Origin: Amoebophrya sp. A120
Taxonomy: Eukaryota > Protista > Dinoflagellata
DNA length: 64,000 nucleotides
Assembly (NCBI GenBank): GCA_905178155.1
Contig: CAJINV010000017.1
Location: 1,403,290 to 1,467,289, forward strand
Direction of reading: 5' to 3'
The translations under genes and the position numbers were made by a program. This document shows positions 11,301 to 54,697 of the stretch, piece after piece. The notes below the pieces were generated by a model, which was not told the DNA's origin, ran no database searches, and saw nothing but the letters and a program-made list of their open reading frames with translations. Position 1 is the first letter of the stretch. Each line of letters starts with the position of its first letter.

Positions 11301-14300
11301 CACCAGTCTACCGCGGAAGATAAGGAATTGATGCGGACGGAGCCCGACATCGACATCCTGCTGGGCGGGTTCGAAAGAGAACCACTCGAATGGTACGTGG
11401 ATGAAAACGGAAAATCCCTGGGGCAGGAGTGGGACCCGGTGATTCAGAAGTTCATCGCGATTCAGGGCCCGGACCGACTGGCGGTGAAGCCCGGACCGGA
11501 CGCGGTTTCCGTGTTGGATCTGTGGCTGGTCCCGGATAATGATGAGGTACTGCAGCAAGACGCACCGAGACCGCCGATTGGGGACACCGAAGAGGACGAG
11601 ATCACGGAGTTCGACGACGAGCAGCTCACAGAAGTCATGACGCCGGACCAGAAGTTGCTGCAAAAGATGAACCGGTTTCCGACCGTCGAGCAAAGATCTC
11701 CAAGATGGAACCAGCAGCGGACCATGCCGTCGCGGACCGGTCGCCGGCTGGTGATCGGCCGGCATAGGCACGTGAAATTGGTCCCGACTCGGGCGCACAT
11801 GAAAGACTACGACGAGAAGGGCTTTGAGCCCGATGAGGAGTTTTCGACGATGCTGCACAAGTACCAAAAATTCTTGAATTTGGAAAACATGAACTTACTC
11901 CAGTGGACGGATTACGACGATCGGCTGGCGAAGGTCGCGAGTTGCGAGGAAGATTCCTTCGACCGCATGCGGGAAATGGCACTGGCGGAATACATTTCGC
12001 TCGTCCAGAGGATGGACCGCGGGCGCAAGCTGGGTCGGAACACGACCGAGGACGAGATCAAAGCACTCCGTGCCGTGGAAAACGTCATCGCCGCCGGGCG
12101 GCCGACGGTGCACGAGGAATCGGTTTGCTCCGGGACGGACAACAGCCGAAGGCCAAACTGGACTACCAAGGACGCGGAATGGCGGCAATGCACGTTTCAC
12201 AGCCTGGTCGCGGACTTGGTTTTACCCGAGTTGGTCGGTGCGGACGCGAGGGATAGGACTTTACTTTTACTACCTGCGACCCACTACCTCTCCTTCGTTT
12301 CCGGTGGGAAGGATTACGGGTTAGACGACCCCCGGTTCACGCGGTACGAACTGCTAAAAGAGTTCATCCCGCCAATCATCGACGATTTTCCGGAGGGTAC
12401 CCCCGCGAGTGAGAGGAATAGGCCGAAGGATTTGAGCAATCAAAAGCGAGCGGAGTTGAGATTGGTGAGGTTGAAAATCTCCGGTTTGGATTTGCTGAAG
12501 TTACTGTATGAGTCCGAGGCGTTCCTCCGCGGGACGAACAGCTACCTCCAGTACGACCACAGCGCAATTTGCATCAACGATTTCACGGACCTGAACTTAC
12601 CGAAAATTTCCGACAAGGACATGAAGCGCAACAAGTTCCCGGGGTTTCCCGGGAAGAAGAAGAAGATGAAATCAGCTGGTGGCAACGCGAGTTCCTACGC
12701 ACCCTCCACCGCGGGGGATGTGGAGACGCACACCGGGGAATCGACGCTAGCGTGGCGCGAGGAGCAGGATAGGATCGAGGAGGAGGCGAGATTGGCGGCG
12801 TTGGAGAAGGTGGAAGAGGAGCAGATTGAGGAAGCATTCTTATCCGTGATGGAGAACGCACGGGCGGATAGGATGGAGGCATGCGGGGGCGTCCTTGGAT
12901 TCCCGGTGTCTGGTGACAGTTCCGAAATCTCCGGCTACGATCCGGACGAGAGGCTGGAGGGGTGGGCGTCGAGCAGTGAAAAAGCGGCAGCGGAAAATAA
13001 GAAAGACGACGATGACAATTCCGAAAACGGTGATAAATCACCTGGCGGTTCCGACTCCGGCGGAGACATGTCCGGGCTAGACCCGGACGACGACGAGAAC
13101 AAATTGTCGAAGTCCAAGGAGAAGGACAAAATCGATTTGTTGGACGCTGAGTCTTTACTTCCCTCCACCGAATCCGACCACTACGACCCGAATGAGATGA
13201 TCAAAACGAAGGTTCCGGCGGATTTCCAGATCCTCTCCGTCTTCGGGGAGCAGTTTGATCGCTCGCAGTTTTACCAAATCGTCGTGCCGGGGACTTTATT
13301 GCTCCACGAAACGGCGAAGCCGGGGGACCACAGACTGGTCCAGCCATTGATCGTTGGCGGACAGAGGAAGGTCAGGCCGCGGAAGCGGCAGAAAGCGCAG
13401 TTAGAAGAGGAGGAGTCGAGTGAGGATGAGGACGAGAAGCGTCGCCGGTACAATGCCGCGCCGCCGGTTCGCGACCAGGTTTACAATTTGTTGAAGGACC
13501 AAGTTGCGCCGAGACAGCTCGGGAAGGAGAGTGTGAAGCCGATCGTGGAAAATTCCCCGTTGCTGGTCGAGTTGGTTCTGAAGCATTTGCTGCAGGATTT
13601 GTGGGAAGACTTGTCGCCCTTCTGGTCCAAGTCGAAGAAGTTCACTTTGGGCGGTTTGAAGCCGCTACCGAAGGATGGCGATATCGATGAGTCGAAACTC
13701 CCACCGATCGTCCGGGTCCGAAGACGGCTGCACTTGATCCAGCAGATGCAGAGAGGGGAGAAGTTGTACGACATGGAGGACCCGATTGAGGTCCGGAAGG
13801 ATAAGCAGATGTTGGAGAAGCTCGTCAACCTGCTCGACAGCGAGCGAGATGTCGCGCCGGAAGAGCTGGTGGAAATTTTGGAAAAGTACCAAAAAGACAA
13901 CGTGTTGGCGAATTTAGACCCGCGTTTGTTGAAGCGCGCTCTGAACGAGCGGCTGCCCGCGCCCATGTCGAAGTGGGCGACTTTGCGGTTGCAGGACGAG
14001 CCGAGTGGCACGGAGGAATCGTCGTCCGCGACTGGCGGTGAGCGGTCGGGCTCAGGACAGGAAGATGGAGAGAAGGAAAAGAGACCTGCAAGTGGTGATC
14101 AGGGTTCCGTCGCGAAGTCGGTGGGGACGGGAGAAAAAGAAAGTTCCGCCGGCGGGGATAAAGATCAGAAATCAGAATCCAAATCCGACAGTCAGAGTTT
14201 GAAGGACAGCCACTCACAGAAGGATTCGGACAGTAGAAGTTTATCGCAGTCGCAGAGCCAGCGGGGATCGCAGAGCTCCAAGCAGGTCAGCAGCAGCGCC

Positions 14301-14996
14301 ACGCCGGGTGGCACGAAAGGAGACACGACTACTTCGGCCGCGAGACAGGTCGAGGCCAGTGCCGGCCGGAGCAGGCGGTCTGGCGCTAGCAGTAAGTTCA
14401 GCAGAGACGATGAATTGGAGAGGATTGAGGAGGAGAATGTGCTCGCTCGGTCGAGACAAAGCTCAAAAGACGCGGCGGAAACCGTTGTCAGTTCCGCGAC
14501 CGGCACCACCGGAGCTGCTGGTGCAATGAAGGAAGGAACAAAACCTGCGAAAGAGTCCACGACCCCGAAAGACTCCCACTCCGCTTCCGGAAGATCCACA
14601 GGGACTAGTCGAAAAACTGGTCGCACCCGGGGATCCCATAAGTCAGGGAAGGAAATCGACCCGAATGCGTACCGTGGCATCGAGTGGAACGGGGTGCGGA
14701 TCGCAAAGTCTCTTTCGCCGGAAAGGGAACAGAAGAGACGGGATTTGTTCTTTTCTGATGACACTCTGGTGAGTGAACTAGAAAAGGGCATGGAGCAGAT
14801 GGCTAGAAGGATGAAATTCTACAAGAAACAAACGCCGAAGGAATTGCTCTACGAGATGCAAAAGCGAGCGGACACGGGGAAGCTGGGGAGGCATTTGGTC
14901 TTCAACATGCCGTTGCTGTCTGGGTCAGAAACGGAGCTGGAGAAAGCCCGAGAAAAAATCGACCCGGTCATGAGCACCAGCGAATTAGAAATGTAA
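5316..14996 (+). CDS. 3226-aa protein with a split, degenerate 5'-nucleotidase/calcineurin-like metallophosphoesterase fold and a large repeat insertion
   Basis: Single ORF. Motifs in the expected order: MGVHEFHHG (cf. GNHEFD), MLNSNL and RIGFLGLVTPDT (~6800-7040); then, after ~1390 aa, VDAVIALTH and DIDILLGGFER (~11275-11380); then a C-domain-like LVRLKISGLDLLKLL. Confidence 0.65.
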   Translation: MASDLLNFDVEMDALFEEEQFERKGDFCLRIYALSELTSLDTLARLRTCVKTLDEKDMPDKTMVTLSGVSGGALQFLLDKGTSWVDIVSREVKDKGNKKKDQAAVEDDKDTKAGSSTSLVPGGDESENKDKPPKTIREEYDPTEGEAGLLNDTTRGLLRSKKPRKSKSASPDIGDKHNREKRKKDKKEKQIKPEYSENLFINESLSPRARKRDKILYGKDELDYVKPGVCFGIVKKEKKSILKQPLSTTSTREDASGQGGGLEGLKEGFVEGQEQQDDITQTGTTTSTTGDQHQQGNQPRTPPPQVRQLPLSPTGATSATATSAPQQPGQHLQEQQSAEGVTLPPIKQEKPQTQEQIEKTMQKELAKEMAKKQLLSSKSIVVKDTSEKAMPKAPTFGARDKAAAMGRPITPIGGNSTKDQKSVEFKDLDEEGRPISAGNFTGQEQADSKPKYDTETLTDVDTSYLHKDWNMQEAEKETKKLDKLKPQPKFGYTHLMCMGVHEFHHGLRNLETCIESYLRNTTHNANAVMLNSNLRCREGGVFDSPVNILPKYHVETVGPAGFRIGFLGLVTPDTRFCALSTEVSKRSAVTMTATSTSPAVRLLTSGRGSFLNSRGADGDQTEDESKATNELLSSTVLDQSPEEVTTSHGGSLYQKRRGGMMLQRSSSTLLQDIGEVGSVENNPNLRLQQPETGDLADIGRGPPSTSGKQITFSPNSPKSRRMMSQDQRQGSLGLEEEDGVFWLPNDKNRGRGQAPPASMSASPGAQQETTYSTTQSRPSADVDKAVDHGGSSADSYVNPQEAPTGGNRPMTPDDNASSSSRGRDIAVRRGAAGLAPSVSSDHNSAEGSQELQLSGSGQQQLNSGHQGAPARATEGQHQPSAAAAKTSKRGAFMSSMRSGSSLSLDEPLDLPVDAGSADGADRISQDIDDGGLVEKPADVVPAQVGAKQKRLQMRARSGSSILDEPFDQEIGGAVQESHEQDKKPTGASSKRLQMRARSGSSILDEPFDQEIGAGGPVELQQEQSKKPTGAASKRLQMRARSGSSILDDPFDQEIGAQQDHQDIATAEPSAPSGNKTLKPALSGQSKRLQMRARSGSSILDEPFDQEVGAAKGDQEEQLFPARPRIFKSIEEASDEADQDSRSAVDSGSAARSGKLKQIEWASDVRFGSDDEDARMQQKAGTAIIGTSAASRGQGNKRKIFTAARSGSSLLDVPYDLEIGVAPEFILMQQQDTGAAGSGSATVPSTQQNAKRRMFGTGATRSGSSLALDEPYDVEIGGPVLGPPNQPQQAAAKRRAMMRARSGSSVLDEPYDVEIGAAGVGAAAALTKAALAKKATFDSIQEEDQEDRPGSAPGAAGGGMVSSGQQATTGAGAPGGTKSRRSAFLTNKATRSGSSLQLDEPFDVEIDEGQPALDKDADAGEQPTLGGGARRRALFDKRRSGSSVLDEPYDEEVAAELQTGADQQKPSSFAKRGRMLSGGRSGTLSNLAEIDEGDEEQRSTESSGQQSGKKRFGPSRSIEWAPDVVFDKDNADEQNGDNTEPGEQQQLSGPPGGKRRSFAGATRSSSSLMLDDPYDVEIDQGQLDAADELTTTTAPRQARPKQGMKSLRTRSGSSLMLDEPYDIEVLGGDQPHSTSKPSVGETKRSSFGRRAQTGSSTALQKIEEGKDEDQEFLDAFADETEEVIGAAGVSGTKRGAFRVSKSIEWAADVQFGQQEEDRAGQEELDGTTVLNPAAARKRRFMAARSGSSLLDEPFDVEVLEHQGPLSAAAAGGMKQEQQMKRKKFMSARSGSSLLDPAFDEEVPLEIGELDTLAPVMDPKKASGTQQQQMRSKAFRQGRSGSSLALDEPFEVLDETKELQGVDFFPLYPVREDTAEQQTTPGQHQDRRLAPILKKKQSGSTQDQESASDSMSQSSKIQGGTTSAEQQSKLFGAQNNKSSSSTTGGGPHAKISADQIGTADDQDQPLLEFQETRCAANEVVGQALKRTSAVDAVIALTHQSTAEDKELMRTEPDIDILLGGFEREPLEWYVDENGKSLGQEWDPVIQKFIAIQGPDRLAVKPGPDAVSVLDLWLVPDNDEVLQQDAPRPPIGDTEEDEITEFDDEQLTEVMTPDQKLLQKMNRFPTVEQRSPRWNQQRTMPSRTGRRLVIGRHRHVKLVPTRAHMKDYDEKGFEPDEEFSTMLHKYQKFLNLENMNLLQWTDYDDRLAKVASCEEDSFDRMREMALAEYISLVQRMDRGRKLGRNTTEDEIKALRAVENVIAAGRPTVHEESVCSGTDNSRRPNWTTKDAEWRQCTFHSLVADLVLPELVGADARDRTLLLLPATHYLSFVSGGKDYGLDDPRFTRYELLKEFIPPIIDDFPEGTPASERNRPKDLSNQKRAELRLVRLKISGLDLLKLLYESEAFLRGTNSYLQYDHSAICINDFTDLNLPKISDKDMKRNKFPGFPGKKKKMKSAGGNASSYAPSTAGDVETHTGESTLAWREEQDRIEEEARLAALEKVEEEQIEEAFLSVMENARADRMEACGGVLGFPVSGDSSEISGYDPDERLEGWASSSEKAAAENKKDDDDNSENGDKSPGGSDSGGDMSGLDPDDDENKLSKSKEKDKIDLLDAESLLPSTESDHYDPNEMIKTKVPADFQILSVFGEQFDRSQFYQIVVPGTLLLHETAKPGDHRLVQPLIVGGQRKVRPRKRQKAQLEEEESSEDEDEKRRRYNAAPPVRDQVYNLLKDQVAPRQLGKESVKPIVENSPLLVELVLKHLLQDLWEDLSPFWSKSKKFTLGGLKPLPKDGDIDESKLPPIVRVRRRLHLIQQMQRGEKLYDMEDPIEVRKDKQMLEKLVNLLDSERDVAPEELVEILEKYQKDNVLANLDPRLLKRALNERLPAPMSKWATLRLQDEPSGTEESSSATGGERSGSGQEDGEKEKRPASGDQGSVAKSVGTGEKESSAGGDKDQKSESKSDSQSLKDSHSQKDSDSRSLSQSQSQRGSQSSKQVSSSATPGGTKGDTTTSAARQVEASAGRSRRSGASSKFSRDDELERIEEENVLARSRQSSKDAAETVVSSATGTTGAAGAMKEGTKPAKESTTPKDSHSASGRSTGTSRKTGRTRGSHKSGKEIDPNAYRGIEWNGVRIAKSLSPEREQKRRDLFFSDDTLVSELEKGMEQMARRMKFYKKQTPKELLYEMQKRADTGKLGRHLVFNMPLLSGSETELEKAREKIDPVMSTSELEM
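8001..10870 (+). repeat. 15 dispersed copies of a coding repeat RSGSS(x1-2)LDEP[FY]DxE[IV], plus 3 copies of IEWAxDVxF
   Basis: Counted in the translation of the 5316..14996 ORF. Codon usage differs between copies, so conservation is at protein level. Confidence 0.9.
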
Positions 14997-41631: not shown

Positions 41632-42554
41632 CAGTGGAGAAGATGAAATTCTCGTCGGCTGAGCGGTATCACTATCGCTTCAACTGCTCCAACTGCTACT
41701 AAAAGAGTTCAAAAAAACTATGTTGGAGACGCAGAGTAGGAGTATGAGAACCGGCATGTCGCACTTCGCCTAAGCATACTGATTGTACAACGACGGACCA
41801 ACGACATGATCAACAGAATTGACTACAAACTGGGCGTAGTAGTCAGTAGAACGAGAACTTCCTTGTGCTCGCGTTCGTCGAGCTATCGGGAATAGTATAA
41901 TTAGTGTGTTCCAAAAATTCAAGAAAAGGCAGTGCTCGTGTTCCTGCATACGATGTGCCATCCGGCAGTCGACACGCTTTTGTCTTGATCATCCTTGTTG
42001 TATCGTTTCAGTGTGTCAAACTCATGAGCATCCATGATCTTGAATGAATTAGATCACTCTTTCTTTCTTTCTTTCTTTCTTACCATGCCCGGGCATGGCT
42101 TCAAATGTTCAAGGCCCTAAAAGTTCCGTTGCAATCCCAATTTCTTCTTTCTCGATTTGATCTCGCAATAAGACAACAGCTGAGCATGAACAACTTGTGA
42201 ATTATAAGATCTAGGACGTTGAAGATAAAAATTTAATACAACAACAAGCTCTGTAAAACAAAACAAAACAATCATCTATTTCTTCAAAAAAAATAAATCA
42301 TCTGAAAATAGTCTTCTTGTGCTGCAAATTCGATGGAATTTCCGTTGTATGAATTCTGTAATGCGCAAATCTATATTGAAAAGGAAAAAGTAGAGAGTCT
42401 AGATTTCAAGACTTTCTATGTCAGCAGGATAAATTTTTAATTTTTATCCTTTCAAAAAGCAAGTATGATTTCGTCTAAGTCTCAGCATCGATTTTTTTTT
42501 TTCTTCTGATCGATTTCACAGTCTATTTCTGACCTTCGCACACCTTTTCCATCC

Positions 42555-45500
42555 TCAAATCCACCCTGCCGTGCCCCGATTCGCATTGCCACCTTGGTCG
42601 TCCCCAAGCCACCCGGTCCGCCCGTTGGCCGCGTCATGTCGGTTGACCTGGGGATTTTGTGGGGGACGAGCACCGGGACCAGCATGATATTGTTGCATTC
42701 CATGCCATGCAGCGCCGCAGGGATAAAGAGTAGAATTATACCTGTTGGGGTGCCCCCCGCCCTGGGGCACCCGCTCTGGGATGGTGCCTGGGTGCCGGCC
42801 GCAAGTGCTCGCCGTCCACGACGCGTGCGGCCACCAAGTCCGTGTCGGAGGAGCACCGCGCTGGATGTAGTGGTTGCGCCATGGACCGGATGGGGCTGAC
42901 GTGCTCCGACCTGTGTCGCCCTTCGTCCACCGATGGGTGGTGGCCCTCCTGCCGGCATGTTCGTGTGGTGAGACCGAGCGGTTTGTGTAGGGAGGGTGGA
43001 CCTGGATGTTGTGGAGGGGAGAGGGAGCGACGACACCACCAAGGGATCCATGCATTCCATACCAACAAGCAACAGAATATTGAGGGTTGGAATTATACCT
43101 GTTCGGGGGGCCCCCACCATGGGGCGCCCCCGATCTTGTCTCGCGTAAATGTGCGCCGTTTCGCCTCGCCGTAGCGTGCAGCCGGCGTCGTGCTCCGGTG
43201 GGTGTCCCAAAGTGGCCATCTCCAGCAGGTCGTGGTTGGGTGGAACCGTGCAAATCGGTCGAGGGGCACGTGGGTTCTGAGTCGATGTGGTTTCCGGGCA
43301 GTAGGGGTAGGCTCTGGTGCGGCTGGTAAGTGACCTGTGTGGTCGAGGGGAGAGCAACAACGGCCAAAGGAGGACACTGTAACACGTCAAGTCCCAACGA
43401 ATGATGCGCATCAATGACATGATAACTATACCTGTTCGGGCACCCCCCACCTGGAGGTGCCCGGGTCGGTGTCTCGCGTGGGTTCGTAGGGTTTGATTGC
43501 TCCGGCGATGTAGAGCATGTCCAGCTGGTGGGGTACGCCGCCGGGTGGTGCGGGTGAGCGTGTGCTTGGGCTGGGGTACAGGGCCTTGACCAAGATGCTC
43601 TGCTCGACTGTAGATGGGCGGCATGGGGTGCCGGGCGGGAGTCGCGTTGCGGCGGTTTCTGTACAGGGATATAATGAGCGAGGGAGGCCGGGTCTTGTGG
43701 AACGTGCAAAAAATTCCTGATGTTCATCGCATTGCTAGTTTCTGTGGGCAAGCAAGCATAACAATAAGAATACCGGTCAGGACCCCCCCACGCCCCCTCC
43801 ACAGCCCCGCGCCCGCGGTAGTGTGTTTGGGGGGGAGAAAGCGGTGGGCGGAGTCCTGGTGGCGCTTTGTTTGCGCTGAAAAGTTCGGCCCCGGCATTGC
43901 GTTGTTGCGTCTCGTCCTCGGTGTCGCTGTCCCAGTCTGCATCGTCATCGAGCTCCCCGCCCGGCTGTAGCGCGCGTCGCAGCAACCTGATGAACTCGAT
44001 GCCCCAGCACGGGTCCTCCTGCAGTGCCGCGGACCGGAATTCGCCCGGGTTGGACGGGTCTACCACCCGGAGGCTCTGAAGGGCCGGGCACTCCTGTACC
44101 AAGTGCGCTGTCGTTGCTGCCGGTGGGCTCTGTGTCCGCCCTTGACAAAACGGGCAGGCGTAGTCTCTACCGGTTATGTCCGAAACCAGCAGGCCCATCC
44201 TTGCCGCGTTGTAGGCGACTTCGTCCGCCCTCGTCGCGTGCGCCACGCTGTCTATCGGGTTTGCCGCGAAGTTGGACACCTGGCGGAGTGTCACGCAGGT
44301 CTTGGACCCTCCTGTCTGTTTTCCCCTGTCCTGCAGCTCCTTCTTTTTCTGTTGCCGCAGGGACCTCGCGACTTCCCGCTTGGCCTGCCTGTGCGTGACC
44401 CTCGCACCGACTTCGGTGTAGTCGGTTTGCTCCCTGGCCATGGTCGCGAGCTTGTCCGCGACCTCGTTGCCGTCGACGACCTTCCTGTGCGACTTTGTGA
44501 ACACCAGCGACAGGTGTCCCGCGGGTCCTAGTTTCTCTAGGGCGTCCCGTAGTGTTTCGTAGAGCAGCAGGTCACTGCCGTCCCGAATTCTTGGGTTTTG
44601 GAGCGCCTCGAGATTGGACTGCGAGTCTGTGACCACGACCGCTGTGCGGACTTCCCCTGCCGGTCTCTCTGCTACGGTGGCCAGGGCCCCCAGCAGGGCT
44701 GCTCGCTCCGCGTCGAACGAGTCCCCGTAGGACGTTGTTGCCCAGCCGTACTCTCTGTACCTGTCCCACGCGTCTTCGACCACGGCCGCGGCACATTGGA
44801 AGTCCTTGACTGAACCGTCCGTGTACAGCGAGACGTCTGCCGCTGTGGTGAGTTGTCGCAACTCCTCGTCCGTCGTTCCGGTTGTGCGGACCGTTAGCCT
44901 CCCGGCTTCTTTTGCGGCGTGTACTGTGCTCAGGCCGTTCTGCGGGAGTGCCCCGGGTTCCGCTAGAACCTCGCACCCCTCCGGTAGCGCCGAAGCCCGT
45001 AGCGCGTCGGCTGCCGCCGTCACCCAGTCGACCTGCCCCGCTGCCGCTTCGACCTGCTCTCGCAGCGGGTCCGTTTTCTCCCTCGACATGCCACGCGCTA
45101 GCAACGCGGCAGCTTCTTCCTTTGCCAGGTTTTCGAGTGGTTGGAGTCCTGCCTCATGCAATGCACAGTCGCCGTTCGTTGTCCTCGGGAGCCCTAGTAT
45201 GCTCCTGGCCGCCTGCTTGTGGAACCTGTCGAGCTCCTGCTTGCACTTTTGTGGTAGTGCGAAGTAGTACGAGCCGAGGCCGTACCGGACTAAGCTTTCA
45301 CAGAATAAACGGCAGAAGACTCGGACATCTGCTGTGCGTGTCCACGGGAGCCGCGCGAGTGCCCGCACCGCTACCATGCGGCGCCGCAACTTTCCTAGCA
45401 TTTTCTCGGTGTGCTTGCGAAATCTCATTTCGCGGTCTAGCGTGATGCCTAGGAATTTTGGATGCGACTCATACGGCAGCTCGGTGCCCGCTCCGCTGTG

Positions 45501-46643
45501 CGTGTACAACTTCAGCTCCTTCTCCTCTTGTTGGAACACCCGCTGGAGCACCGTCAGTGTGCACTTCGTGGGTGAAAGCGACATGTTGTTCCGCCGGCAC
45601 CAGTCGTGTAACCGGTCCAGCGCCGCCTGTAGCTTTCTCTCTGCTTCTTCGGGATCATCGTACTCGACCGAGATTGCGAGGTCGTCCATGTACAAGAAGA
45701 CCTCGCATCCCGTGCCCTCCAATACTTCCGCGAGCTCGAAAAAGTCGCAGAAAACCGTGGGCCCGATGACCGTCCCCTGTGGTACTCCTTGCGGGATTTT
45801 GTGCACCTCGCTTCGCCCTCCTGCGTACTCGACGACCCTTGTGCGGTCGCCGCAAAAATTCCGCGTCCACCTGACTAGCAACGCGTGTTCTGCTCTTTTG
45901 TCCTCCGGGAGGCGCGCGCCATTCTTTAACGCGTGGCGCGCGTACTTGTGCCTGTTCACTCGGTCGAAAGCGGTCTCCAGGTCGATCAGCACCAAAGCTC
46001 TGCGCTTGCCGGCGCGGAACGTCTTCTGTGCCCTCGCGGAGAGCGTAGCGACGTGCTCCGCCGCCCCTCGGTGCTTGCAGTCGCCGTACTGCAGGTGGGA
46101 GCGCACGGGGGTCCCTGCTTGTGCAAACAGCAGCCTTGTGCGGTTTTGGACGCATCGCTCTAACAACTTGGCCAGGATTGGCGTCAAAGCTACTGGGCGG
46201 TAGGAGCTCGGTTTGTCGACCGGTTTGGACGGCTTCAGCAGTGGCTTCAGCAGCTCCCGCTTCAGAGTTTGCGGTGTTCCCCCTGTGTTCACACAGTCGG
46301 AGAAAAAACCGCGAAGGAACTTTTTTCCTGCTGTGGGCAAGTTCTTAAACTGTGGCCCCTTTAGCCCGTCCGGGCCCCCCGCCGACGTTGACGACTGCGA
46401 GACCAGTGCTGCTTCTATCTCGTCGAGCGTGAACTCGATCCGTGTGCTTGGCTTTATCTCCTCGTTGAAGATTTTCTCGGCTTCTCTTTTCGCGGTCTGC
46501 TCCTCTGCTTCGTCTAACGTCGGCAAGGAGGCGTAGTGCTTTGCGAAGACCGTCGGCAGCCCTGTGGCATGGGACTCGCCCCCGAACTTTAGCACTTTGG
46601 CCGCCCCCGTGACCGGTCTGCCGCCCGCTTCGAGTTCTCGCAA
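42555..46643 (-). CDS. Retrotransposon pol, C-terminal part: RT, RNase H, CCHC finger, Pro/His-rich tail
   Basis: AGGPDGL, YRPVALTPILAKLLER, DLETAFDRV, GVPQGTVIGP, YMDD (45681-45692), KFLGITLD. RNase H YTDGS..E..TDSQS..SH..GNEVAD. CPFC..H....C. In frame with the upstream ORF across a single TAG. Confidence 0.92.
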   Translation of the reverse strand: MRELEAGGRPVTGAAKVLKFGGESHATGLPTVFAKHYASLPTLDEAEEQTAKREAEKIFNEEIKPSTRIEFTLDEIEAALVSQSSTSAGGPDGLKGPQFKNLPTAGKKFLRGFFSDCVNTGGTPQTLKRELLKPLLKPSKPVDKPSSYRPVALTPILAKLLERCVQNRTRLLFAQAGTPVRSHLQYGDCKHRGAAEHVATLSARAQKTFRAGKRRALVLIDLETAFDRVNRHKYARHALKNGARLPEDKRAEHALLVRWTRNFCGDRTRVVEYAGGRSEVHKIPQGVPQGTVIGPTVFCDFFELAEVLEGTGCEVFLYMDDLAISVEYDDPEEAERKLQAALDRLHDWCRRNNMSLSPTKCTLTVLQRVFQQEEKELKLYTHSGAGTELPYESHPKFLGITLDREMRFRKHTEKMLGKLRRRMVAVRALARLPWTRTADVRVFCRLFCESLVRYGLGSYYFALPQKCKQELDRFHKQAARSILGLPRTTNGDCALHEAGLQPLENLAKEEAAALLARGMSREKTDPLREQVEAAAGQVDWVTAAADALRASALPEGCEVLAEPGALPQNGLSTVHAAKEAGRLTVRTTGTTDEELRQLTTAADVSLYTDGSVKDFQCAAAVVEDAWDRYREYGWATTSYGDSFDAERAALLGALATVAERPAGEVRTAVVVTDSQSNLEALQNPRIRDGSDLLLYETLRDALEKLGPAGHLSLVFTKSHRKVVDGNEVADKLATMAREQTDYTEVGARVTHRQAKREVARSLRQQKKKELQDRGKQTGGSKTCVTLRQVSNFAANPIDSVAHATRADEVAYNAARMGLLVSDITGRDYACPFCQGRTQSPPAATTAHLVQECPALQSLRVVDPSNPGEFRSAALQEDPCWGIEFIRLLRRALQPGGELDDDADWDSDTEDETQQRNAGAELFSANKAPPGLRPPLSPPQTHYRGRGAVEGAWGGPDRYSYCYACLPTETSNAMNIRNFLHVPQDPASLAHYIPVQKPPQRDSRPAPHAAHLQSSRASWSRPCTPAQAHAHPHHPAAYPTSWTCSTSPEQSNPTNPRETPTRAPPGGGCPNRYSYHVIDAHHSLGLDVLQCPPLAVVALPSTTQVTYQPHQSLPLLPGNHIDSEPTCPSTDLHGSTQPRPAGDGHFGTPTGARRRLHATARRNGAHLRETRSGAPHGGGPPNRYNSNPQYSVACWYGMHGSLGGVVAPSPLHNIQVHPPYTNRSVSPHEHAGRRATTHRWTKGDTGRSTSAPSGPWRNHYIQRGAPPTRTWWPHASWTASTCGRHPGTIPERVPQGGGHPNRYNSTLYPCGAAWHGMQQYHAGPGARPPQNPQVNRHDAANGRTGWLGDDQGGNANRGTAGWI
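42648..43773 (-). other. Four GT-AG intron-like units in the retrotransposon 3' region (43659-43773, 43335-43431, 43002-43098, 42648-42741)
   Basis: Donors CG|GTATTC, CAG|GTATAG, CAG|GTATAA (x2). Acceptors CTGTACAG|A, CCACACAG|GTC, ACATCCAG|GTC, ATCCCCAG|GTC. These resemble host intron ends in this window. Lengths 115, 97, 97 and 94 nt. Confidence 0.6.
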
Positions 46644-46646
46644 CAG

Positions 46647-49600
46647 CTAGAAAGCGCCGCTCGTTGTTGCCTGCGCCTTCTCTGCTTTCTCCCGGAACTG
46701 CTTGCGCCGCCTCTCGTTCTCTGCCTCCCGCACGGCCCTGTTTGCTCGCTTCGTCTCCTTCTGCCAGCGGGCTCGCTCGTCCCCGACCTGTGCTGCGTGA
46801 GCCCGGCGGGCGCATTCGTTTCGGCGAACGATTGCGGCCTCGAGCTCCGTGGGCTCGTGGTGCTTCCTTCGTGGCCTCACTTTCTTGGGGTTCACCGAGA
46901 CCCTCGGAACGGCCTTGGCGGTCGCCGCTACTACTGCTTTGCGAAACAGCTCGGCCTGCTTGGTCAGCGGCGTCTCCTCCGTCGGTGTGTTGGCGGTTAG
47001 GAAATTCGTGAACTCCTCGCGGTACAGGTCCCAGTCGGCTCGCTCGAATACCAGCTTCGTTTGCTTCCGCGTTACTACTGTTTCGTTTTCCTCTGACAGG
47101 GACTCGACGACCTGGGTCGGTGTTGGTAGCTGCGGGCCTGCGAAGAACGACTGCACCAAGGGAACCGCGGCGACCCAGCTCGTCACCCACTTCCCTAGCC
47201 GAAAGCCCCGGGGCTCGGTCGCCTTGTTGTTTGCTTGCGCCTTCTTTTCCTTTCTCTGCTTTCTGCGCGCCGCTCCGCTCGTTTTTGACGGCGCTTCGCC
47301 CTGTTGCCGGCCTTGCGCGCCTGCTGTGCCGCCCCCTCCGAAGAGGGAACCGCCGGCCCCTTTTTTGCCTGTTGCGCTGGTTCTCCCCGCGCCTGCTGCT
47401 TCTTCTCTTTTGCCTGTCTGGTGTGCAGAGCCGCTGCCCGCGGCGCTGCTCGTGCTGTTGCTGCTTGCCCCCTGGGCTCCTGCCCTCGCCGCCTTCTGCG
47501 GGATGCAGAAAACCAGCGCGCTGTGGTCGCTCGCTAGTGGTACTACTGCCGGGCCGTTTGGCTGCACGGCATATGCCCGCGCTGCTAGTGAGTCAGACAT
47601 CAATAGCCAGTCCGGACTGGTTTCCGAGCTGGGTCGCGTTGGCGTCTCCCGGTTCGCGAATGTTGCGAGGCCTTGGTCTAGTGCAAACTGTTCTACGTCG
47701 CTTCCTCTTTGGTCGTCCCGCTCCGCCGGTGGGAAAACTACTGCGCTGTGGCCGTTGACATCCCAGCTGAGAAAGACCTCGTCCCCGTTCTTGCCCTTCG
47801 GCAGTGGCAGTCCCTTCGCGCCGGGGGCGGTGTACACTGCTGCACCTGTGAAAGCTGCGTTCTTCGCTGTGCCACTGTAGACGTGTGCGGCTGCTAGGTT
47901 GTGCCGACCTCCTTCTTTCGTGTTCCACTGAAAGCCGTCCTTCGCGTCTTCTGCCTTTGCGTTTTTGTGCGCTACGACGGCGGCGCCCCCGTATGTGGCG
48001 TTTCCGCCGCTGCCTGACGTTGCGGGGGAGAACGATACCAGCACGAACTCGTCTCCCAACAAGCGCACGAACTCGCCAAACTCTTCTTCTGTTTCGCACC
48101 AGTGTTCCTGCAGGAAGATGAGGGAGCTGTCTACCCCCCGGACCAACCTCCGCAGGCCTGGCGCTTTTGCTGCTTTCGCTTTTTCTGAACGGACGCTCTG
48201 GCAGTTCCACTGCACTCCTACCTCTCCGGCCCATTCGGTTCGGGGTGGGAGGTCCGGAATGGCGAAGTCTAAGGTCACCTCTCGTGGCGCCTCCTGGACG
48301 TAGCCCGCCTTGTAGTGGGACATCTGCGCCGGGCCCCCGCCGGTGTGTATCCCCCGCGGGTAGGCTGGCAGCATCACGCGCGTGACTTCCGGGTGCTCTT
48401 CTGCGGCATGGCTCAACATACCCTTCAGAGCGTTGACCCGCCCTACCTGGTAAACCCTGTTGGCGTTTGGGTCTTCCCGGCAGATCGTGCACTCGTACCG
48501 CTTGTCCGGCGTCCCTTTTTCCGGCGTAATGTCGTGGCAGAGAAGTTCCGTCGTCTTGTCGAAGCGATGGCTGCAGGGCGCTGTTAGTGGCCTGCCCCAC
48601 GCGTCCGCGCTGTCTTCCTTCGCCTGTTCGTCCTGGGACGGCGCTGGGCGTGCCGGCCTGCTGCTGCTACTGCTGCTGCTCGTTGCCCCCGCGTTCGGCT
48701 GCTGTTGCCTCTGTTCTCGCTGCTCGAGCCTTTGCCTCCCCGCAATTGCTTCCGGGCTGTCTTCGCCGTAGAAACGCTCCCGGACCTGTTGCTCCGTCAA
48801 GACGCCTCTGTTGACGAGGCTCCGCTTGCTCTCCCCCGGCATCAGGTCGACGGCGCCGTTCCTGTGGGTGCGTGTCCACATGATGTCGTCCTCGTCCTCC
48901 ACCTGTACGAAAGCGGTGCTTACGCCCCTCAGCGTGTTGCTGGGGTGAAGCCTCGGCGTTTTGTTTCTCTTTTTTTCCCTCTCCTGCGCCGGTCTCGCGG
49001 GCGGCTCGTGCCTCTGCTCCTCTCTTTGGTCTGCTCTTCTTTGCGACGCCTGTCGTTCTGTCTCGCGGCCGCCGGCTCCTTGTGCCGCCGCCTGGCCTGT
49101 GGCTTTTGTTCCTTTTCCCTTTAGCTTTGCCGGAGGGTTGACGAGGTCATTGAACCTGGTGGACACACTGTCTACCGCTTCTGTGACCGTGTGCACCGCT
49201 GCTGCGACGTCCGCCGCCGCGCTCAGCAGACCGAAGCCCGTGTTCTGTGCCAACTGCCTGAGCAGCGCGGCCGTTTCGCCGCTTCGGCCGTCCCCCTCTC
49301 CACGCCTTTCTTTCTCGCGCTCTGTGCCCCGGCTTTCGGTGGCGGCCGGCGGGGTGCTTTTTTCCTCTTTTTCGGCATCCCCTGCTTCTTGCAAGCGCTC
49401 TGCTTTTTCGCAGTGCGTGTGCCAGGGGCTGCGTCTGCCTGTGGCGCGGTCATACACCAACAAAGCGAGCGCGGCACTAAAGGTCAGCAACATGGCGTCG
49501 AAGACGTGTGCCGTCGTTGCGACCTGGGCCCCCAGGCGGAGGAGGTGTTCCTCGTCCAGGGTCAACGCCAGGCCCCTGGCGAGTTTGTCTTCTATCCGCC

Positions 49601-50408
49601 CCCGGAGCTCCGGCGCTAGTGGCTCCGGCTGTATCAGCCACTTTGCCACTAGGGAAACCAAAAGGGCCGAGATCACAAAAACCCCGAGCAAGTGACTGTA
49701 GTGGTATTCTCTTCGCAGCACTACGTATTTGGTAACGGGTGGCTGGGGATGGGGTGGGGGCCAGCTGCTGCTTCCCCCCGTCGCTGGGAGGCGCCCGTCT
49801 TGCCGGAGCGGCACCCTCGTTACCGGCGGTTTCCCGATGTCCTTCGGACCGCTCGCCGGCTGTTGCTCGGGAGGCTGCTCCTCTTCATCGCTGCTACCGT
49901 CTGCTTCCGTCTTGTTCCCCTTGCCCGCGGACAGCTGCGGCACCATGGCGCTACGTAGCTGCCCTGGGTAGACAAAAGTTTGCGGGGATACGACCAGCGG
50001 CAGCTGCGCGTAGTGCTGCTGGTTGATCCAGGGGTCTGGTGGGATGTCTGGTGGGGGGAGCCCGGGCGGAGCTTGGTGTGGAGGCATCGCGAAAGCGGGA
50101 TATTGCTGCTGGCCGCCCAAGTAGGCACCGCTCTGGCCTGCCGGGTGTCCCTGATACAGCGCAGTGTCCCCGCGGTGAAAATGCTGCGGCTGGCCGCCCC
50201 CGCGGTAGAAGTGCTGCTGTTGACCAACGCCATAAAACTGCTGGTCGTATCCCTGCGTCCCGCCTCCGGGGTGCCAGTAGCCGCTCCAGGCGGTGTTGCT
50301 TTGGGCGCCATGGCCGTGATACTGGGGTGCCCTGCCCGCGCTGGGGTTGCTGGAGCTGCTGCTGGCGCCGCCTCCCCTCGCGATCATCGGGTTACCCGCC
50401 CCGCTCAT
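46647..50408 (-). CDS. Retrotransposon pol, N-terminal part: Q/G/P-rich leader, two hydrophobic helices, C2H2-like finger, AP endonuclease
   Basis: APE motifs QWNCQS, IFLQEH, GGAAVV, VYTAP, WDVNGH, PTR...PDW, SDH (~48215-47520). CTIC...H....H. The first ATG is at 50408 (the track starts at GTG 50435). Confidence 0.88.
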   Translation of the reverse strand: MSGAGNPMIARGGGASSSSSNPSAGRAPQYHGHGAQSNTAWSGYWHPGGGTQGYDQQFYGVGQQQHFYRGGGQPQHFHRGDTALYQGHPAGQSGAYLGGQQQYPAFAMPPHQAPPGLPPPDIPPDPWINQQHYAQLPLVVSPQTFVYPGQLRSAMVPQLSAGKGNKTEADGSSDEEEQPPEQQPASGPKDIGKPPVTRVPLRQDGRLPATGGSSSWPPPHPQPPVTKYVVLRREYHYSHLLGVFVISALLVSLVAKWLIQPEPLAPELRGRIEDKLARGLALTLDEEHLLRLGAQVATTAHVFDAMLLTFSAALALLVYDRATGRRSPWHTHCEKAERLQEAGDAEKEEKSTPPAATESRGTEREKERRGEGDGRSGETAALLRQLAQNTGFGLLSAAADVAAAVHTVTEAVDSVSTRFNDLVNPPAKLKGKGTKATGQAAAQGAGGRETERQASQRRADQREEQRHEPPARPAQEREKKRNKTPRLHPSNTLRGVSTAFVQVEDEDDIMWTRTHRNGAVDLMPGESKRSLVNRGVLTEQQVRERFYGEDSPEAIAGRQRLEQREQRQQQPNAGATSSSSSSSRPARPAPSQDEQAKEDSADAWGRPLTAPCSHRFDKTTELLCHDITPEKGTPDKRYECTICREDPNANRVYQVGRVNALKGMLSHAAEEHPEVTRVMLPAYPRGIHTGGGPAQMSHYKAGYVQEAPREVTLDFAIPDLPPRTEWAGEVGVQWNCQSVRSEKAKAAKAPGLRRLVRGVDSSLIFLQEHWCETEEEFGEFVRLLGDEFVLVSFSPATSGSGGNATYGGAAVVAHKNAKAEDAKDGFQWNTKEGGRHNLAAAHVYSGTAKNAAFTGAAVYTAPGAKGLPLPKGKNGDEVFLSWDVNGHSAVVFPPAERDDQRGSDVEQFALDQGLATFANRETPTRPSSETSPDWLLMSDSLAARAYAVQPNGPAVVPLASDHSALVFCIPQKAARAGAQGASSNSTSSAAGSGSAHQTGKREEAAGAGRTSATGKKGAGGSLFGGGGTAGAQGRQQGEAPSKTSGAARRKQRKEKKAQANNKATEPRGFRLGKWVTSWVAAVPLVQSFFAGPQLPTPTQVVESLSEENETVVTRKQTKLVFERADWDLYREEFTNFLTANTPTEETPLTKQAELFRKAVVAATAKAVPRVSVNPKKVRPRRKHHEPTELEAAIVRRNECARRAHAAQVGDERARWQKETKRANRAVREAENERRRKQFREKAEKAQATTSGAF

Positions 50409-50679
50409 GTCCCACCCTGGGGGGCACTTCGCCACGGGCAGTTAAACCATGGAGCCCAACCGGGGCGGAGGTCGTGGTTATGATTTTCTGTTGCTGCGCG
50501 CGAAGACGTCGGTCCTGTCGCCTGGAGGTCAGTCTGCTCGTGCGACGAAGCCTACACGCGTGTAGATCGGCCTCGGCGCGGAGTGAAGAGGAAGATCGGC
50601 GGGAAGAATCACTGCTACTGCGGAGCGCCGTGCGGTTCTGCTGTGTCGGCTCGCGCTCGGAGGAGGATGGACGGGACTG

Positions 50680-51290
50680 GCGCGCGCGGAAGAAGAGGCC
50701 CTGCCGAAAGAAGGACGTGTCCCAGCCGACAAACGGCTTGCCTTGTTCCCCTCTAAAACTGGAGCACTGCGGTAAAACTGGGGCCCCGGGGAGACCTTCG
50801 CTGTTCCGCCTCTGTGTTCGCCCCGCCTTGTCCCTCTCTAAAACCTCTCCTTTGGTGACGAGTAGCGCGCGCGGAAGAAGAGGCCCGGCAGACGGACAGC
50901 AGACCGACGTGTTCCAACCGCAGACGATGCCGCTCTTCGTCCCGCCGGGTGGCGCAAAACGGCTCGCCTTGTTCCACTCTAAAACCGGAACCCGGGAGAG
51001 ACTTCTCTCTTTCTCCTCTTTGTTCGCCTCGCCTTGTCCCACTCTGAAACCTCTCCGTTGGACACGAGAGGAGCACGCGTGGAAGAAGAGGCCCGGCAGA
51101 CAGAAAGAAGACGCGTTCCAGCCGCAAAAGACACTACTCTTCGCCCCGTCGTGTGGCGCGACGCGTCTCGCCTTGTCCCACTCTAAAACCGGAACGCTAT
51201 TTGTAAACTCGACGGCGTGATTGGGTCGCGGGAAAATCTTCACCGTCTCGCCTCTACGTACGTCTCGCCTTGCCCCACTCTAAAACTGGC
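50680..51290. repeat. Degenerate ~185-210-bp tandem repeats inside the retrotransposon
   Basis: GAAGAAGAGGCCC at ~50689, 50874 and 51082. A CCTTGT(T/C)CCACTCTAAAAC-like motif recurs six times. Confidence 0.75.
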
Positions 51291-51695
51291 GGCTGAATGT
51301 CGTAACAGCAGGTCGGGCAGCAGCAGGAAGATGGGTGTTGCTGAAAGAATGCGCTGCGCACAAGAACTGCGTCGCCGGGTCCTCCGAAAGAGGACGAGGA
51401 CCACGGTTGTGGCGAGGCTGCCGACCTCGGGGGCTGGCTGGCTGATTGTGGTGGTGGTGGTTTGGCGGAATTCCGGTCCCGGGAAGTTCTCGTTTGTCTT
51501 CAGACGCGACGGCACAGTCGAACTTCCCCCACGAAAGCGCTGCCGAATCCGCAAAAACTACAGCGTTAGGGCGTGTCTGAAGGAAAACAGACACCCTTTC
51601 ATACCAATCGGCGGTCACTGCCTGGCGCTGAGGGGCCGGCTGGTGCTGTGGAGCTGTGGACGGAAGTCTTCTCGTGCGGTTTCCCCTCGTTCCGG

Positions 51696-51971
51696 AATCG
51701 AAGCCGGCGGCCGTTTACGCCTATAAATTGCCGATTTGGTTGCGGACTGGTACTGCTTTTCCTGTGTTTTTTCGGCTCCTCCTTGGTAATCGAAGCCGGC
51801 GGCCGTTTACGCCTACAAATTGCCGATTTGGTTGCGGACTGGTGCTGCTTTTCCTGTGTTTTTTCGGCTTCTCCTTGGTAATCGAAGCCGGCGGCCGTTT
51901 ACGCCTATAAGTTGCCGATTTGGTTGCGGACTGGCGCTGCTTTTCCTGTGTTTTTTCGGCACCTCCTTGGT
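51696..51971. repeat. Three near-identical 92-bp tandem repeats inside the retrotransposon
   Basis: AATCGAAGCCGGCGGCCGTTTACGCCTA... starts at 51696, 51788 and 51880. Confidence 0.95.
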
Positions 51972-52873
51972 TTTTTCCACTTTTGTTGACGTCAAATCGG
52001 TGCACTCGGGTCGTCAGAAGGCGTGCTGGTCTGCTGCTGCTGCTGACAATCAGCTGATGCTGGCGATCTGCGTGGAGATCAGCGCGGAGAAGCACTACTT
52101 CCCGGTCTCTGCGTCCGACGCCCCCGACCGCCCCTCGCCGTGTTTCGTTTCTGTTTCAGGCGCCCCCGACTGCCCCCAGAAGTACTGCCACTGAGGAGCC
52201 GGCGCGATGCTCACTGCTACGAGAATATTGGCGTCGAGATCTGCAACCTCGTCTCCCGAAGATGCCCGCGAGAGGGCGTTTGTCTTCAGACACGACGGAG
52301 CAGTGGTTTTTTTCCGAGATAAGCGCCTTCTGGTTCGCCCGAAAGTCGCTCTTGGGTCGTGTCTGAAGGAAAACCTACGCCCTTGCTCCCTGCCGGTGTT
52401 GTGTGGCCTCGGATAAAGACGCTTTACGGATGGAGGAGCGGCTGCTGCTGGTGGACTGCGCGCTGCGCGGGGGTGGGAGCGCTGCTGGGCGCGAGCCTGG
52501 ATGCGTCCAGTCGGTGCCGCCGTGCCGTCGCGACGGTGCTGCAGGATCTGGGGGGTAAAGATGTAAGTCGGCACAGCCAATAGCCCGTCCCTACGGGGCG
52601 CGTCGCAGGGTGAGAGATGCGCGGGAGACCATTTTTTGCTATGAAGTTCTTTACTTTTTTTGAGCGCAAAGCCGCTAGAGTAAACATACAACCTGCTTCG
52701 TGGACTTGGATTGCGTTGTGCCGTCCAGCTGTCCGAGATCTTGACTGGCGCCGCGCAGAACAACGCTGCCTCGTGAATGTCGGCTATCGCTGCAAGGTGA
52801 GGCGCTGGTGGTGGGGTCGTGGGCAGGTCGGGGTCGTTTCACTACCACCAACACGGCCGTGCTGCGCCGCTCA

Positions 52874-53554
52874 CTACTCTACGACCTGTGCCCCTTCGTC
52901 GACCGTGCCACCCGTTTCTCCTACTCGCCTGCTCTGCCTCAGCGCCCGCACCTCACGCCGCAGCTCCTCGTTGTTCTCCCGTAGTTGATCAAGTCTGTCG
53001 GCCACCTCCTTTGTAATCTTCTCCTCCAACCGGACCAGGAGCAGCGGGAGCGTCGAGCTGCCTGAGAATGGACTGTAGATTATGCTCACGACAAACGCCT
53101 TTGCTTCCTCCGAATTGCTAGCGATCCACTGGATGCGGATATAGGCTGCGGGCTCCGTCTCGTGGTCGTGCAGAAGGTCCTCCAGTGCGTTCGGCAGCGT
53201 TTTACTTGTAAGGAGACCCCACGGCGTTGATCCGTCAACGCTCAGAGCGACGAGCGGGTGCTGGGTGTTGAATCCATAGAGGAAATTTGCGTAGTCTCCG
53301 CGCTGCTTGGGTTGCCCCCTCAGCTCCCAACAAATGTCGGCCGTCGCGCGTCCCTCGTAGTCTTTCTCCTTCCGGACCAGAATTACGGGGTTCTGGGGGG
53401 TTAGCAAAAGCGGCACATGTGCAACGTCGGGAAGGTGTTGCCTCGTCTCCACTGTGCTGTTTTGAAACTCCTCCAGCTCGTCCTCACTGATGATGCCCCG
53501 CCTCACCAATTCTTCAAGCTCCGTGAGATCTCGACTCCTGGACAAGCGGGGCAT
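52874..53554 (-). CDS. 226-aa upstream ORF of the retrotransposon (SHOCT-like N-terminus, C-terminal coiled coil)
   Basis: ATG-initiated and same sense as pol. LTELEELVRRGIISEDELEE resembles a SHOCT motif; heptad region LEEKITKEVADRLDQLRENNEELRREVRAL. Confidence 0.6.
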   Translation of the reverse strand: MPRLSRSRDLTELEELVRRGIISEDELEEFQNSTVETRQHLPDVAHVPLLLTPQNPVILVRKEKDYEGRATADICWELRGQPKQRGDYANFLYGFNTQHPLVALSVDGSTPWGLLTSKTLPNALEDLLHDHETEPAAYIRIQWIASNSEEAKAFVVSIIYSPFSGSSTLPLLLVRLEEKITKEVADRLDQLRENNEELRREVRALRQSRRVGETGGTVDEGAQVVE

Positions 53555-54697
53555 GCGGATTGCGTGTTGCGCGACGGCTCGCTTGCTGTGTTGTGTGATG
53601 TGTGGATGGCGGCTCGAGTAGTTGGCACGTGAAGCAGCCTGCTGTCATAAAATCACCAACGACGGGCCCCGGGTATTCCTCGTGACAGGACGCCCGGACT
53701 ATGTCGGACCGCCTTGGATCACTGAAAATTGTGCTGCTCTATGATATCCACCACCAGCTGGCCACACCACACAATTATGCTGCTGTAGCTTGTTGCTGAC
53801 CTGCACTTTTCCCCCTAGGTACTCGCGAAATCACCACGAACAAACCCCGGACGCCTTCCGCTGACGTGGGCGCCCGGACTATGACGGTTCGATGTGGTTC
53901 ACTAAACTTGTTTGGGGAGCTGGGCCGAGGCGTTGTTGTTGCTTCTTACTTTGTTTTGGTGTAATAGGAAGAGGGGTGGCGTCATCTGCCGGCGTCTTGT
54001 TACTGTCGCTGCGCGTTGCCTCCACCCACCGATGAGTATGCGCGAAGGCACTATCAGGCCTTCCACTGCTCGTCTGTCGTTGGCGGCAACTCGGAAAGGG
54101 AAAAGAAAATAGCAGGACAATGCCACTGGGTGGTGGAGTGATGGTCTGGGTCAGTGGCCGGGGGTAGGCATGTTCTTTCGGTTTACAACAACTTACAACA
54201 ACTTACTTTCGCCAAGCCCATTATAGCGGTATATGCAACCTACTTACTGCTACATGAAAAATCACTAGTGCATTAGATCACTCTTTCACACAAGCTCGAC
54301 ATGGATCTAAGTATTTTTTTTTTAGACAAGAACAAGGTCAAGGATTCACAACTTTTTTTGAACACGAACTATAAAATATTAATTTGTGCATAGCAGCCTC
54401 TGCCTCATCAATCAGGATCTTCCACTGTCTGATGGTTCACATTCACGTCGCTTATTTCTTCCCTCTTGCATAAGCCTCAAATTTCTGCAGAGCTGTTCAG
54501 GACTCGAGGTTGCAGGATTTAGATTTAGGGTCAAACAAAGGGTTTAGCTTCAGGACTCCGATTTCGCTTTCGACGATTGAAAGGCATAGCGCGAAGAAGT
54601 AGCAGCGCGGCACTCTTTGTGTTGTAAAGCCTGACACGACTACGCAGCTGTTGCACAACTTGGCGCCCCATCTAAAGAAAAAGAAGAAGAACATACA

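Follow-up and report, generated by a model that had tools for sequence, protein, structure and literature searches.

We analysed a 64,000-nucleotide (nt) stretch of contig CAJINV010000017.1 of the dinoflagellate Amoebophrya sp. A120 (the window; all positions count from its first letter). Its minus strand carries a full-length retrotransposon without long terminal repeats (a non-LTR element), antisense to the surrounding host genes. In the 3' tail of this element, downstream of its CCHC finger, four intron-like units (A-D, numbered along the minus strand) alternate with exons which are free of stops in all three frames. The array is real, goes beyond chance and is common to diverged families. 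The borders, open reading frames (ORFs) and domains of the element are the following.

42064-54271, minus strand: full-length non-LTR retrotransposon (12,208 bp), recognised by its 16-bp direct repeat borders and Pfam domains
54272-54287, minus strand: target-site duplication, 5' copy (GAAAGAGTGATCTAAT)
52874-53554, minus strand: candidate ORF1, 226 aa, with a coiled coil at the C-terminus
42555-50408, minus strand: ORF2 (pol frame), with a long N-terminal extension, AP endonuclease (APE), reverse transcriptase (RT), RNase H, CCHC finger and a tail of ~470 codons
47517-48215, minus strand: APE domain (PF03372, E 0.0012; PF14529, E 0.056; both below the curated cut-off)
45438-46214, minus strand: RT (PF00078, E 7e-22)
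44436-44837, minus strand: RNase H (PF00075, E 0.0003, below the curated cut-off; alignable with relatives)
44088-44156, minus strand: C-terminal CCHC-type finger
42064-42098, minus strand: 3' terminal palindrome (42098-42083), then the GAAA-repeat tail
42048-42063, minus strand: target-site duplication, 3' copy, adjoining the GAAA-repeat tail

The 16-bp direct repeat which borders the element (54287-54272 and 42063-42048) has no third site in the window. Based on an APE upstream of a non-LTR RT, the target-site duplication, the GAAA-repeat tail and the absence of LTRs in a self-comparison of 42401-53500 against the window, the element is an APE-type long interspersed nuclear element (LINE). 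The RNase H after the RT, followed by the CCHC finger, corresponds to the domain order of the I group (Ingi/L1Tc, I, Nimb), and by its domains and ends the element is I-group-like, its nearest hits being 22-29% identical. ORF2 of the present copy is broken by one in-frame TAG at 46649-46647 (minus), between APE and RT; this is most simply a nonsense mutation, readthrough being the alternative. The ORF1 candidate has just weak coiled-coil matches in Pfam, below the cut-off. Also, the A-run near 42500 is internal and is not the poly(A) end of the element, which ends at 42064; a reading of the +1 isoforms as non-stop messages depended on an end near 42500 and was dropped. The tail is organised as follows.

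43778-43858, minus strand: long hairpin A, a stem of ~25 bp whose end lies 4 nt upstream of donor A (-47.6 kcal/mol; z of -1.75 over 90 nt)
43659-43773, minus strand: intron-like unit A, 115 nt, GTATTC...CAG, weak sites, open in the pol frame only
43432-43658, minus strand: exon 1, 227 nt, no stops in three frames, hairpin B (43463-43437) at its end
43335-43431, minus strand: intron-like unit B, 97 nt, GTATAG...CAG/GT, open in the pol and +1 frames, three stops in +2
43099-43334, minus strand: exon 2, 236 nt, no stops in three frames, hairpin C (43133-43103) at its end
43002-43098, minus strand: intron-like unit C, 97 nt, GTATAA...CAG/GT, the top-scoring donor of the element
42742-43001, minus strand: exon 3, 260 nt, no stops in three frames, hairpin D (42772-42748) at its end
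42648-42741, minus strand: intron-like unit D, 94 nt, GTATAA...CAG/GT
42064-42647, minus strand: terminal exon, where all three frames stop (42636, 42557, 42484), with an AT-rich 3' untranslated region (UTR)

The donor-to-donor spacings of the units are 342, 333 and 357 nt. All four unit lengths are of the form 3n+1 and all three exon lengths of the form 3n+2; the four 3n+1 lengths are not independent and count once, since the units are duplicated modules repeated in one phase. The pol frame is open through the whole tail to a TGA at 42557-42555, the +1 frame from 43723 to a TGA at 42484-42482, and the +2 frame stops at GTA TAG/TAA inside units B, C and D. These coordinates, lengths, spacings and open frames reproduce, base for base, those of an earlier reading made from the sequence alone (the original prediction), in which the pol frame crossed all four units, a second frame the last three, a third stopped at GTA TAA/TAG and the exons were stop-free. 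All four units lie inside the target-site duplication and are thus part of the full-length insertion. They have in common just a 56-nt segment of 70-75% identity, mostly exonic, and no further copies were found elsewhere in the window. They were also considered as introner elements, which are near-identical dispersed copies with terminal inverted and direct repeats inside the intron, and rejected for want of such copies in the window. Rfam gives no match in the tail at E<=5 and thus no known ribozyme or structured RNA family.

Concerning the stop depletion, the 723 nt of the three exons contain no stop triplet in any sense frame and 17 antisense. The composition-preserving shuffles that the original prediction had proposed gave a mean of 13.3 stops (mononucleotide) and 9.9 stops (dinucleotide), and zero was reached in 0/5000 of either; codon shuffles which kept the pol frame open gave a mean of 6.9, with zero in 1/5000. 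The depletion is beyond chance (P<=0.0002). A T-poor composition, which the same prediction had named as a possible full cause, does not explain the open exons, because ORF2 of the same element has only 5 windows without a stop in any frame among 231 T-matched windows of 240 nt. Across the element the +2 frame has few stops, 16 in 2146 codons, and stays open for stretches of 416 and 358 codons. The weight of the depletion therefore rests on the +1 frame, which has 82 stops in 2146 codons and a longest run of 188 codons, compared with 413 open codons in the tail.

The distribution of the stops fits cumulative splicing. Frames which are readable after cumulative splicing have 2 stops in 930 codons, both at a donor TAR (TAA or TAG), and frames which are never read have 5 in 182 (Fisher p 0.0018), a contrast to which phased T content adds. 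In shuffles of the units, the frames needed are open in 0.055% of cases. Their T is shifted to the third position of pol codons (57 of 114 vs 41.6+-4.2; P 0.00025), as expected if U-rich RNA must stay translatable. Of the 16 predicted splice combinations, 12 reach their stop in the last exon, 4 terminate at a donor TAR, and in one (1/34 with exon skipping) a junction lies further than 50 nt downstream of the stop, which breaks a 50-nt decay rule known from animal work, from which the host may differ. In 400 exon shuffles the number of isoforms breaking this rule had a mode of 9 and a minimum of 2; this is the same signal as the exon stop depletion and not an independent one. The sequence statistics support the protection from premature-stop decay proposed earlier; under this rule it would cover 15 of the 16 isoforms, and it is not total, as 4 of 16 stop early.

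The likeness of the units to host introns was assessed against nine host introns (118-204 nt, all GT-AG), chosen by eye such that open frames were restored; the genes holding them are presumably CFAP20, SCOT, hexokinase and an EF-hand gene. A two-state segmentation by T content of 43960-42500, blind to splice sites, returned exactly four blocks, at 43772, 43430, 43097 and 42740. The first letter of each block is the T of a GT and its last lies 4-18 nt short of the proposed AG; T makes up 26-34% of the units and 10-12% of the exons. A matrix built on the nine introns of the host ranks donors C, D, B and A as 1, 2, 11 and 74 of 523 GT sites and the corresponding acceptors as 8, 9, 46 and 63 of 961 AG sites; the match to the host consensus is thus strong for C and D, moderate for B and weak for A. 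Two of the nine host donors read GTATAG, as in unit B. The first 20 nt have a T fraction of 0.46 in the units and 0.42 in the host introns, and the last 20 nt a G fraction of 0.09 and 0.11. In the tail no scar was found that would mark an intron precisely lost at an earlier time. Two further measures were set aside: a k-mer model of the nine host introns, in which the units reach z 2.5-3.2 and host intergenic DNA, antisense and many chunks of the element score equally, and an enrichment of ATGC in the units, which was chosen post hoc.

Further T-rich, host-like GT-AG intron candidates lie in the 2.4-kb spacer between ORF1 and ORF2, at 52689-52548 (142 nt) and 51604-51442 (163 nt; minus); the acceptor at 51442 ranks 3 of 961 and the donor at 51604 ranks 8 of 523. 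Several host junctions (60060, 60536, 35280, 35922) read AG/GT at both ends, and the acceptor of CFAP20 intron 1 is directly followed by GTAAG, a perfect donor.

A predicted GC hairpin before every donor, together with the target-site duplication and the relatives described below, is an addition to the original prediction. In each case the 3' arm of the stem ends 4-6 nt upstream of the donor, and no such hairpin precedes any of the nine host donors (0/9). Ranked by stability among the 40-mers of 1963 windows (7.9 kb), hairpins C and B take the first two places and D the seventh; hairpin A has a longer stem than the other three. The dinucleotide-shuffle z values of C, B, D and A are -3.6, -2.2, -1.6 and -1.75. 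Residues flanking the conserved motifs exchange in complementary pairs (A/C, V/H), which matches the prediction of the hairpin. Programmed frameshifting was rejected: no slippery heptamer precedes a hairpin in the tail, and the one candidate, at 43831, lies inside hairpin A.

The peptide encoded by the tail looks tolerated rather than selected, unlike a real protein domain, because it lacks the codon bias of ORF2 and matches no family. The codon-bias log-likelihood of its pol frame is -0.2 to -1.0, compared with +0.24 to +0.38 for the controls (two of the three control windows lie inside the training region). Neither the pol nor the +1 frame matches a Pfam family, and a search of the ESM Atlas returned nothing at >=0.8 (best 0.79). 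The combinatorial pol C-termini suggested earlier are not supported, given the missing codon bias, the missing Pfam match and the radical divergence between families.

Scanning 1.84 billion representatives with phmmer gave 42 matches, of which two fall in the tail: P0008 (CAD7942268.1) and P0009 (CAD7950931.1), both gene models of Amoebophrya sp. A120 and both without a Pfam match. In their three units the donor residues NRY[NS] and the acceptor residues QV are preserved, and the implied unit lengths are 94, 97 and 97 nt. Conservation of GT/AG and of the 3n+1 lengths across copies, a check proposed earlier, is seen at the level of motif residues and lengths in the proteins of two relatives. 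Unit D and its counterpart in P0008 are identical in 23 of 31 codons and equal in length; the interior of unit B and that of P0009 are identical at 14 of 32 positions, with the same length and ends. In P0008 the exon end before the D-like unit is C-like, and an extra unit follows D, so that modules appear to be gained, lost or shuffled whole. A reading by eye of the P0008 N-terminus as the +1 frame of a unit-B-like block received no support from BLASTP. APE and RT families are present in 6 of 7 relatives. The remoter members of the clade are 22-32% identical; P0001, P0010, P0011 and L001 extend no more than ~75 aa beyond the CCHC finger, and the clade relative L001 has a short 3' UTR and no array. 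Judged from these proteins and loci, the intron-like array is therefore a trait of the family and not of the clade. L001 itself (1359-1555) is an RNase H LINE with a short 3' UTR and a TGAATC-repeat tail, inserted in AT-rich repetitive DNA. No relatives were found in the viral contigs or prokaryote genomes scanned. A metagenome scan for the unit motif gave no related sequence among 168 candidates, another gave one relative among 79 (L001), and protein word searches with the tail, under length limits which left out the short P0008 and P0009, gave nothing.

LINEs copy themselves via their own mRNA, and sense introns are therefore expected to be erased. From the anatomy, the open frames, the folding energies of the hairpins and the conserved motifs and lengths in two relatives, all of which are observed, we infer splicing, its gating by hairpins, a choice of template and a benefit to the element. 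The account that we favour, and hold to be somewhat probable, is that the units are partly retained spliceosomal introns, damped by hairpins, in a translated tail that is safe from decay in all frames, with the unspliced RNA as the copying template. The host would cut the units part of the time, and a hairpin 4-6 nt before the donor would damp its use, so that the intron is often retained. The unspliced RNA, in which the pol frame is read straight through, would serve as template for target-primed reverse transcription, and the introns would survive copying for this reason. Each splice would remove 3n+1 nt and shift the ribosome by one frame; stops would have been cleared from every readable frame by selection against premature-stop decay, and the stop would fall in the last exon for nearly every splice combination. 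The benefit may lie at the RNA level, where contact with the spliceosome would make the transcript resemble a host mRNA, and this likeness would favour export, stability and escape from a silencing of intronless RNA; the tail peptide would be a tolerated by-product. Intron-plus-exon modules (3n) may be gained or lost via duplication or recombination at the shared hairpin-donor segment, and module duplication would replenish introns lost when spliced RNA is copied.

A bolder form of this account, which seems possible and which we put forward tentatively, describes a LINE family disguised as an intron-containing host gene. The hairpin-gated intron array would act as a modulo-3 splice counter, with the unspliced RNA as genome and spliced RNAs that are decay-proof in any frame; daughters with lost introns would remain viable, since all three frames are open in every exon, and module duplication would restore the introns.

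Several observations weigh against partly retained introns. The sites of unit A are weak (donor 74/523, acceptor 63/961), and stronger acceptor-like sites are found elsewhere in the element. With 94-115 nt, the units fall below the length of every one of the nine host introns (118-204 nt). These host introns yielded no clear branch-point motif and no branch point was identified in the units, where TGA[TC] occurs at 5.0/kb, compared with 19.6/kb in the host introns. The hairpin z values of A and D are just -1.75 and -1.6, D refolds in a longer context, and covariation is weak (2 of 9 pairs changed on both sides, reached in 45/500 shuffles; B, C and D only). The third (+2) frame is cheaply open in a T-poor element, and exon 1 is open in +2 though linear splicing never reads +2 there. 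The GT/AG of the relatives, known from proteins alone, are deduced from amino acids, and both P0008 and P0009 read through 3/3 units unspliced. U1 small nuclear RNA (snRNA) was not detected in strains A25 or A120 (PMC7789003). According to the same source, the A120 gene models were built from transcript and protein alignments and the longest ORF was kept (PMC7789003); unspliced models therefore point to retention and cannot show splicing. As for the host-like sense introns with frame rotation of the original prediction, the sequence statistics speak for them (T blocks at GT, host-matching donors, conserved motifs and lengths), and the unspliced models of the related genes against.

That the units are decoys is unlikely. 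They would recruit splicing factors through the donor, the U-rich tract and the acceptor and would almost never be cut since the hairpin blocks the donor; they would serve to license expression or to prevent premature 3'-end cleavage, with the open frames as insurance against rare splicing. Both A120 models, unspliced over 3/3 units, agree with this, as does a hairpin before each donor and before 0/9 host donors. Introns shield from HUSH in human cells even when unspliced (PMC8770142), and U1 inhibits premature termination of unspliced EVD RNA (PMC5580714). However, clearance of stops from two extra frames over 723 nt needs splicing frequent enough for selection, and the acceptors and lengths are conserved too. 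A reading without any splicing, which we consider improbable, makes the tail dual-coding, with a pol extension and an overlapping 413-codon +1 ORF with repeated hydrophobic stretches, and turns the GT/AG motifs into by-products of protein repeats (GGGxPNRY...QV). The relatives were indeed found as open pol-frame proteins with in-frame spacing, units A and B have PxRYSY in common via synonymous codons, and T at the second position of the +1 frame yields hydrophobic runs. It is at odds with the tail's lack of the element's codon bias in the pol frame, the absence of a Pfam family in either frame and of an Atlas match at >=0.8, the radical substitutions between families and the absence of a slippery heptamer before a hairpin; residues by the motif exchange in complementary pairs (A/C, V/H), as a hairpin predicts, and the T blocks start exactly at GT.

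It is very unlikely that the array is neutral baggage, that is, host pre-mRNA captured by one copy, or introner insertions in it, later duplicated and without function. The units are inside the target-site duplication and common to diverged families, the stop depletion has P<=0.0002, and a later insertion would keep open just the frame read after splicing, but the frame read without splicing runs open through all four units. Against these points stand the array-free clade relative L001 and the many introner families of Amoebophrya A120, some of which have been ascribed to non-LTR elements (PMC12130899). The least credible alternative is back-splicing, in which the stop-free 3n+2 exons circularise into an endless ORF for rolling-circle translation. 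All 3/3 exon circles are stop-free across the back-splice joint, with 2 ATGs each, and back-splicing, unlike linear splicing, needs exon 1 to be open in +2; that openness, however, is expected by chance about 1 in 5 times (a rough composition estimate), the two-frame openness of the units (P 0.00055) is left unexplained, and such peptides have no apparent use.

If the retained-intron account is true, the element uses a strategy new for a LINE. A LINE family which keeps four introns, with a footprint of selection in all three frames, would make two questions testable in one short locus: how a retroelement selects its unspliced RNA for copying, and whether retroelements acquire introns in order to be mistaken for host mRNA. 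It would also place strong, structured GT-AG substrates in a lineage in which U1 snRNA was not detected. I-group APE LINEs with RNase H agree with the element in their domain order (APE-RT-RNase H-CCHC), in the target-site duplication and in a 3' end with a stem-loop and a short-repeat tail, whereas here the ORF extends ~470 codons beyond the CCHC finger through four intron-like units; L1Tc is reported to give unspliced transcripts (PMC1874656). No LINE with a 3' intron array was found in searches of the open-access literature, with most hits judged by title and abstract opening. Escape from HUSH, demonstrated in human cells, is a possible purpose of the introns here; we know of no HUSH-equivalent pathway in dinoflagellates. 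In human cells, HUSH treats introns as the mark of self RNA and intronless cDNA as that of retroelements (PMC8770142).

Penelope-like elements, the cited exception to such erasure, also keep spliceosomal introns after retrotransposition, which is called highly unusual (PMC8557442, PMC4209133), and why they do so is called unknown (PMC8557442). As retroelements that keep introns they resemble the present LINE, which is not one of them: they have another, telomerase-like class of RT, a GIY-YIG endonuclease or none and pseudo-LTRs, and it has an APE and an RNase H instead. The introns of Penelope and Chlamys-3 are single and in the 5' UTR, whereas here a 3' array lies in an open frame, with upstream hairpins and frame rotation. 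The Ty1/Copia element EVD retains its intron in full-length RNA, and its spliced RNA has another fate (PMC5580714). EVD and retroviruses, with their spliced and unspliced RNAs, are LTR elements in which one intron sets the Gag:Pol ratio; in the present element all catalytic domains lie upstream of the introns and splicing therefore cannot change them. Amoebophrya introners, from the same host lineage, are repeated intron-sized units with hairpins (PMC7789003). As described there, their inverted repeats lie inside the intron, their ends are non-canonical and they are scattered in host genes, whereas the present units are GT-AG, have the hairpin in the exon and are repeated along with the exons.

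Other features of the element and the window were also recorded. An inverted-repeat pair (CTTCAGACAC ... GTCTGAAG) enclosing ~85 nt occurs in two copies, at 52368-52284 and 51582-51498 (minus), and is reminiscent of the hairpin introns of Amoebophrya. The 5' UTR contains two bulged hairpins with a common 13-nt motif (53883-53871 and 53703-53691, minus) and no Rfam match, possibly a packaging or priming signal or an undescribed ribozyme. In the spacer, three 92-nt tandem repeats, 96-97% identical, are found at 51696-51971 and a degenerate 204-nt repeat at 50675-51290. The start of ORF2 is overlapped by a 295-codon ORF (51279-50392, minus) without a Pfam match. The N-terminal extension of ORF2 before the APE (50408-48300, minus) is unusually long (~730 aa) and contains stretches that are Q/G/P-rich, hydrophobic or zinc-finger-like. 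Outside the element, positions 5286-14996 of the window hold an intronless host ORF of 3236 aa with many RSGSS(I/L)LDEP(F/Y)D repeats.

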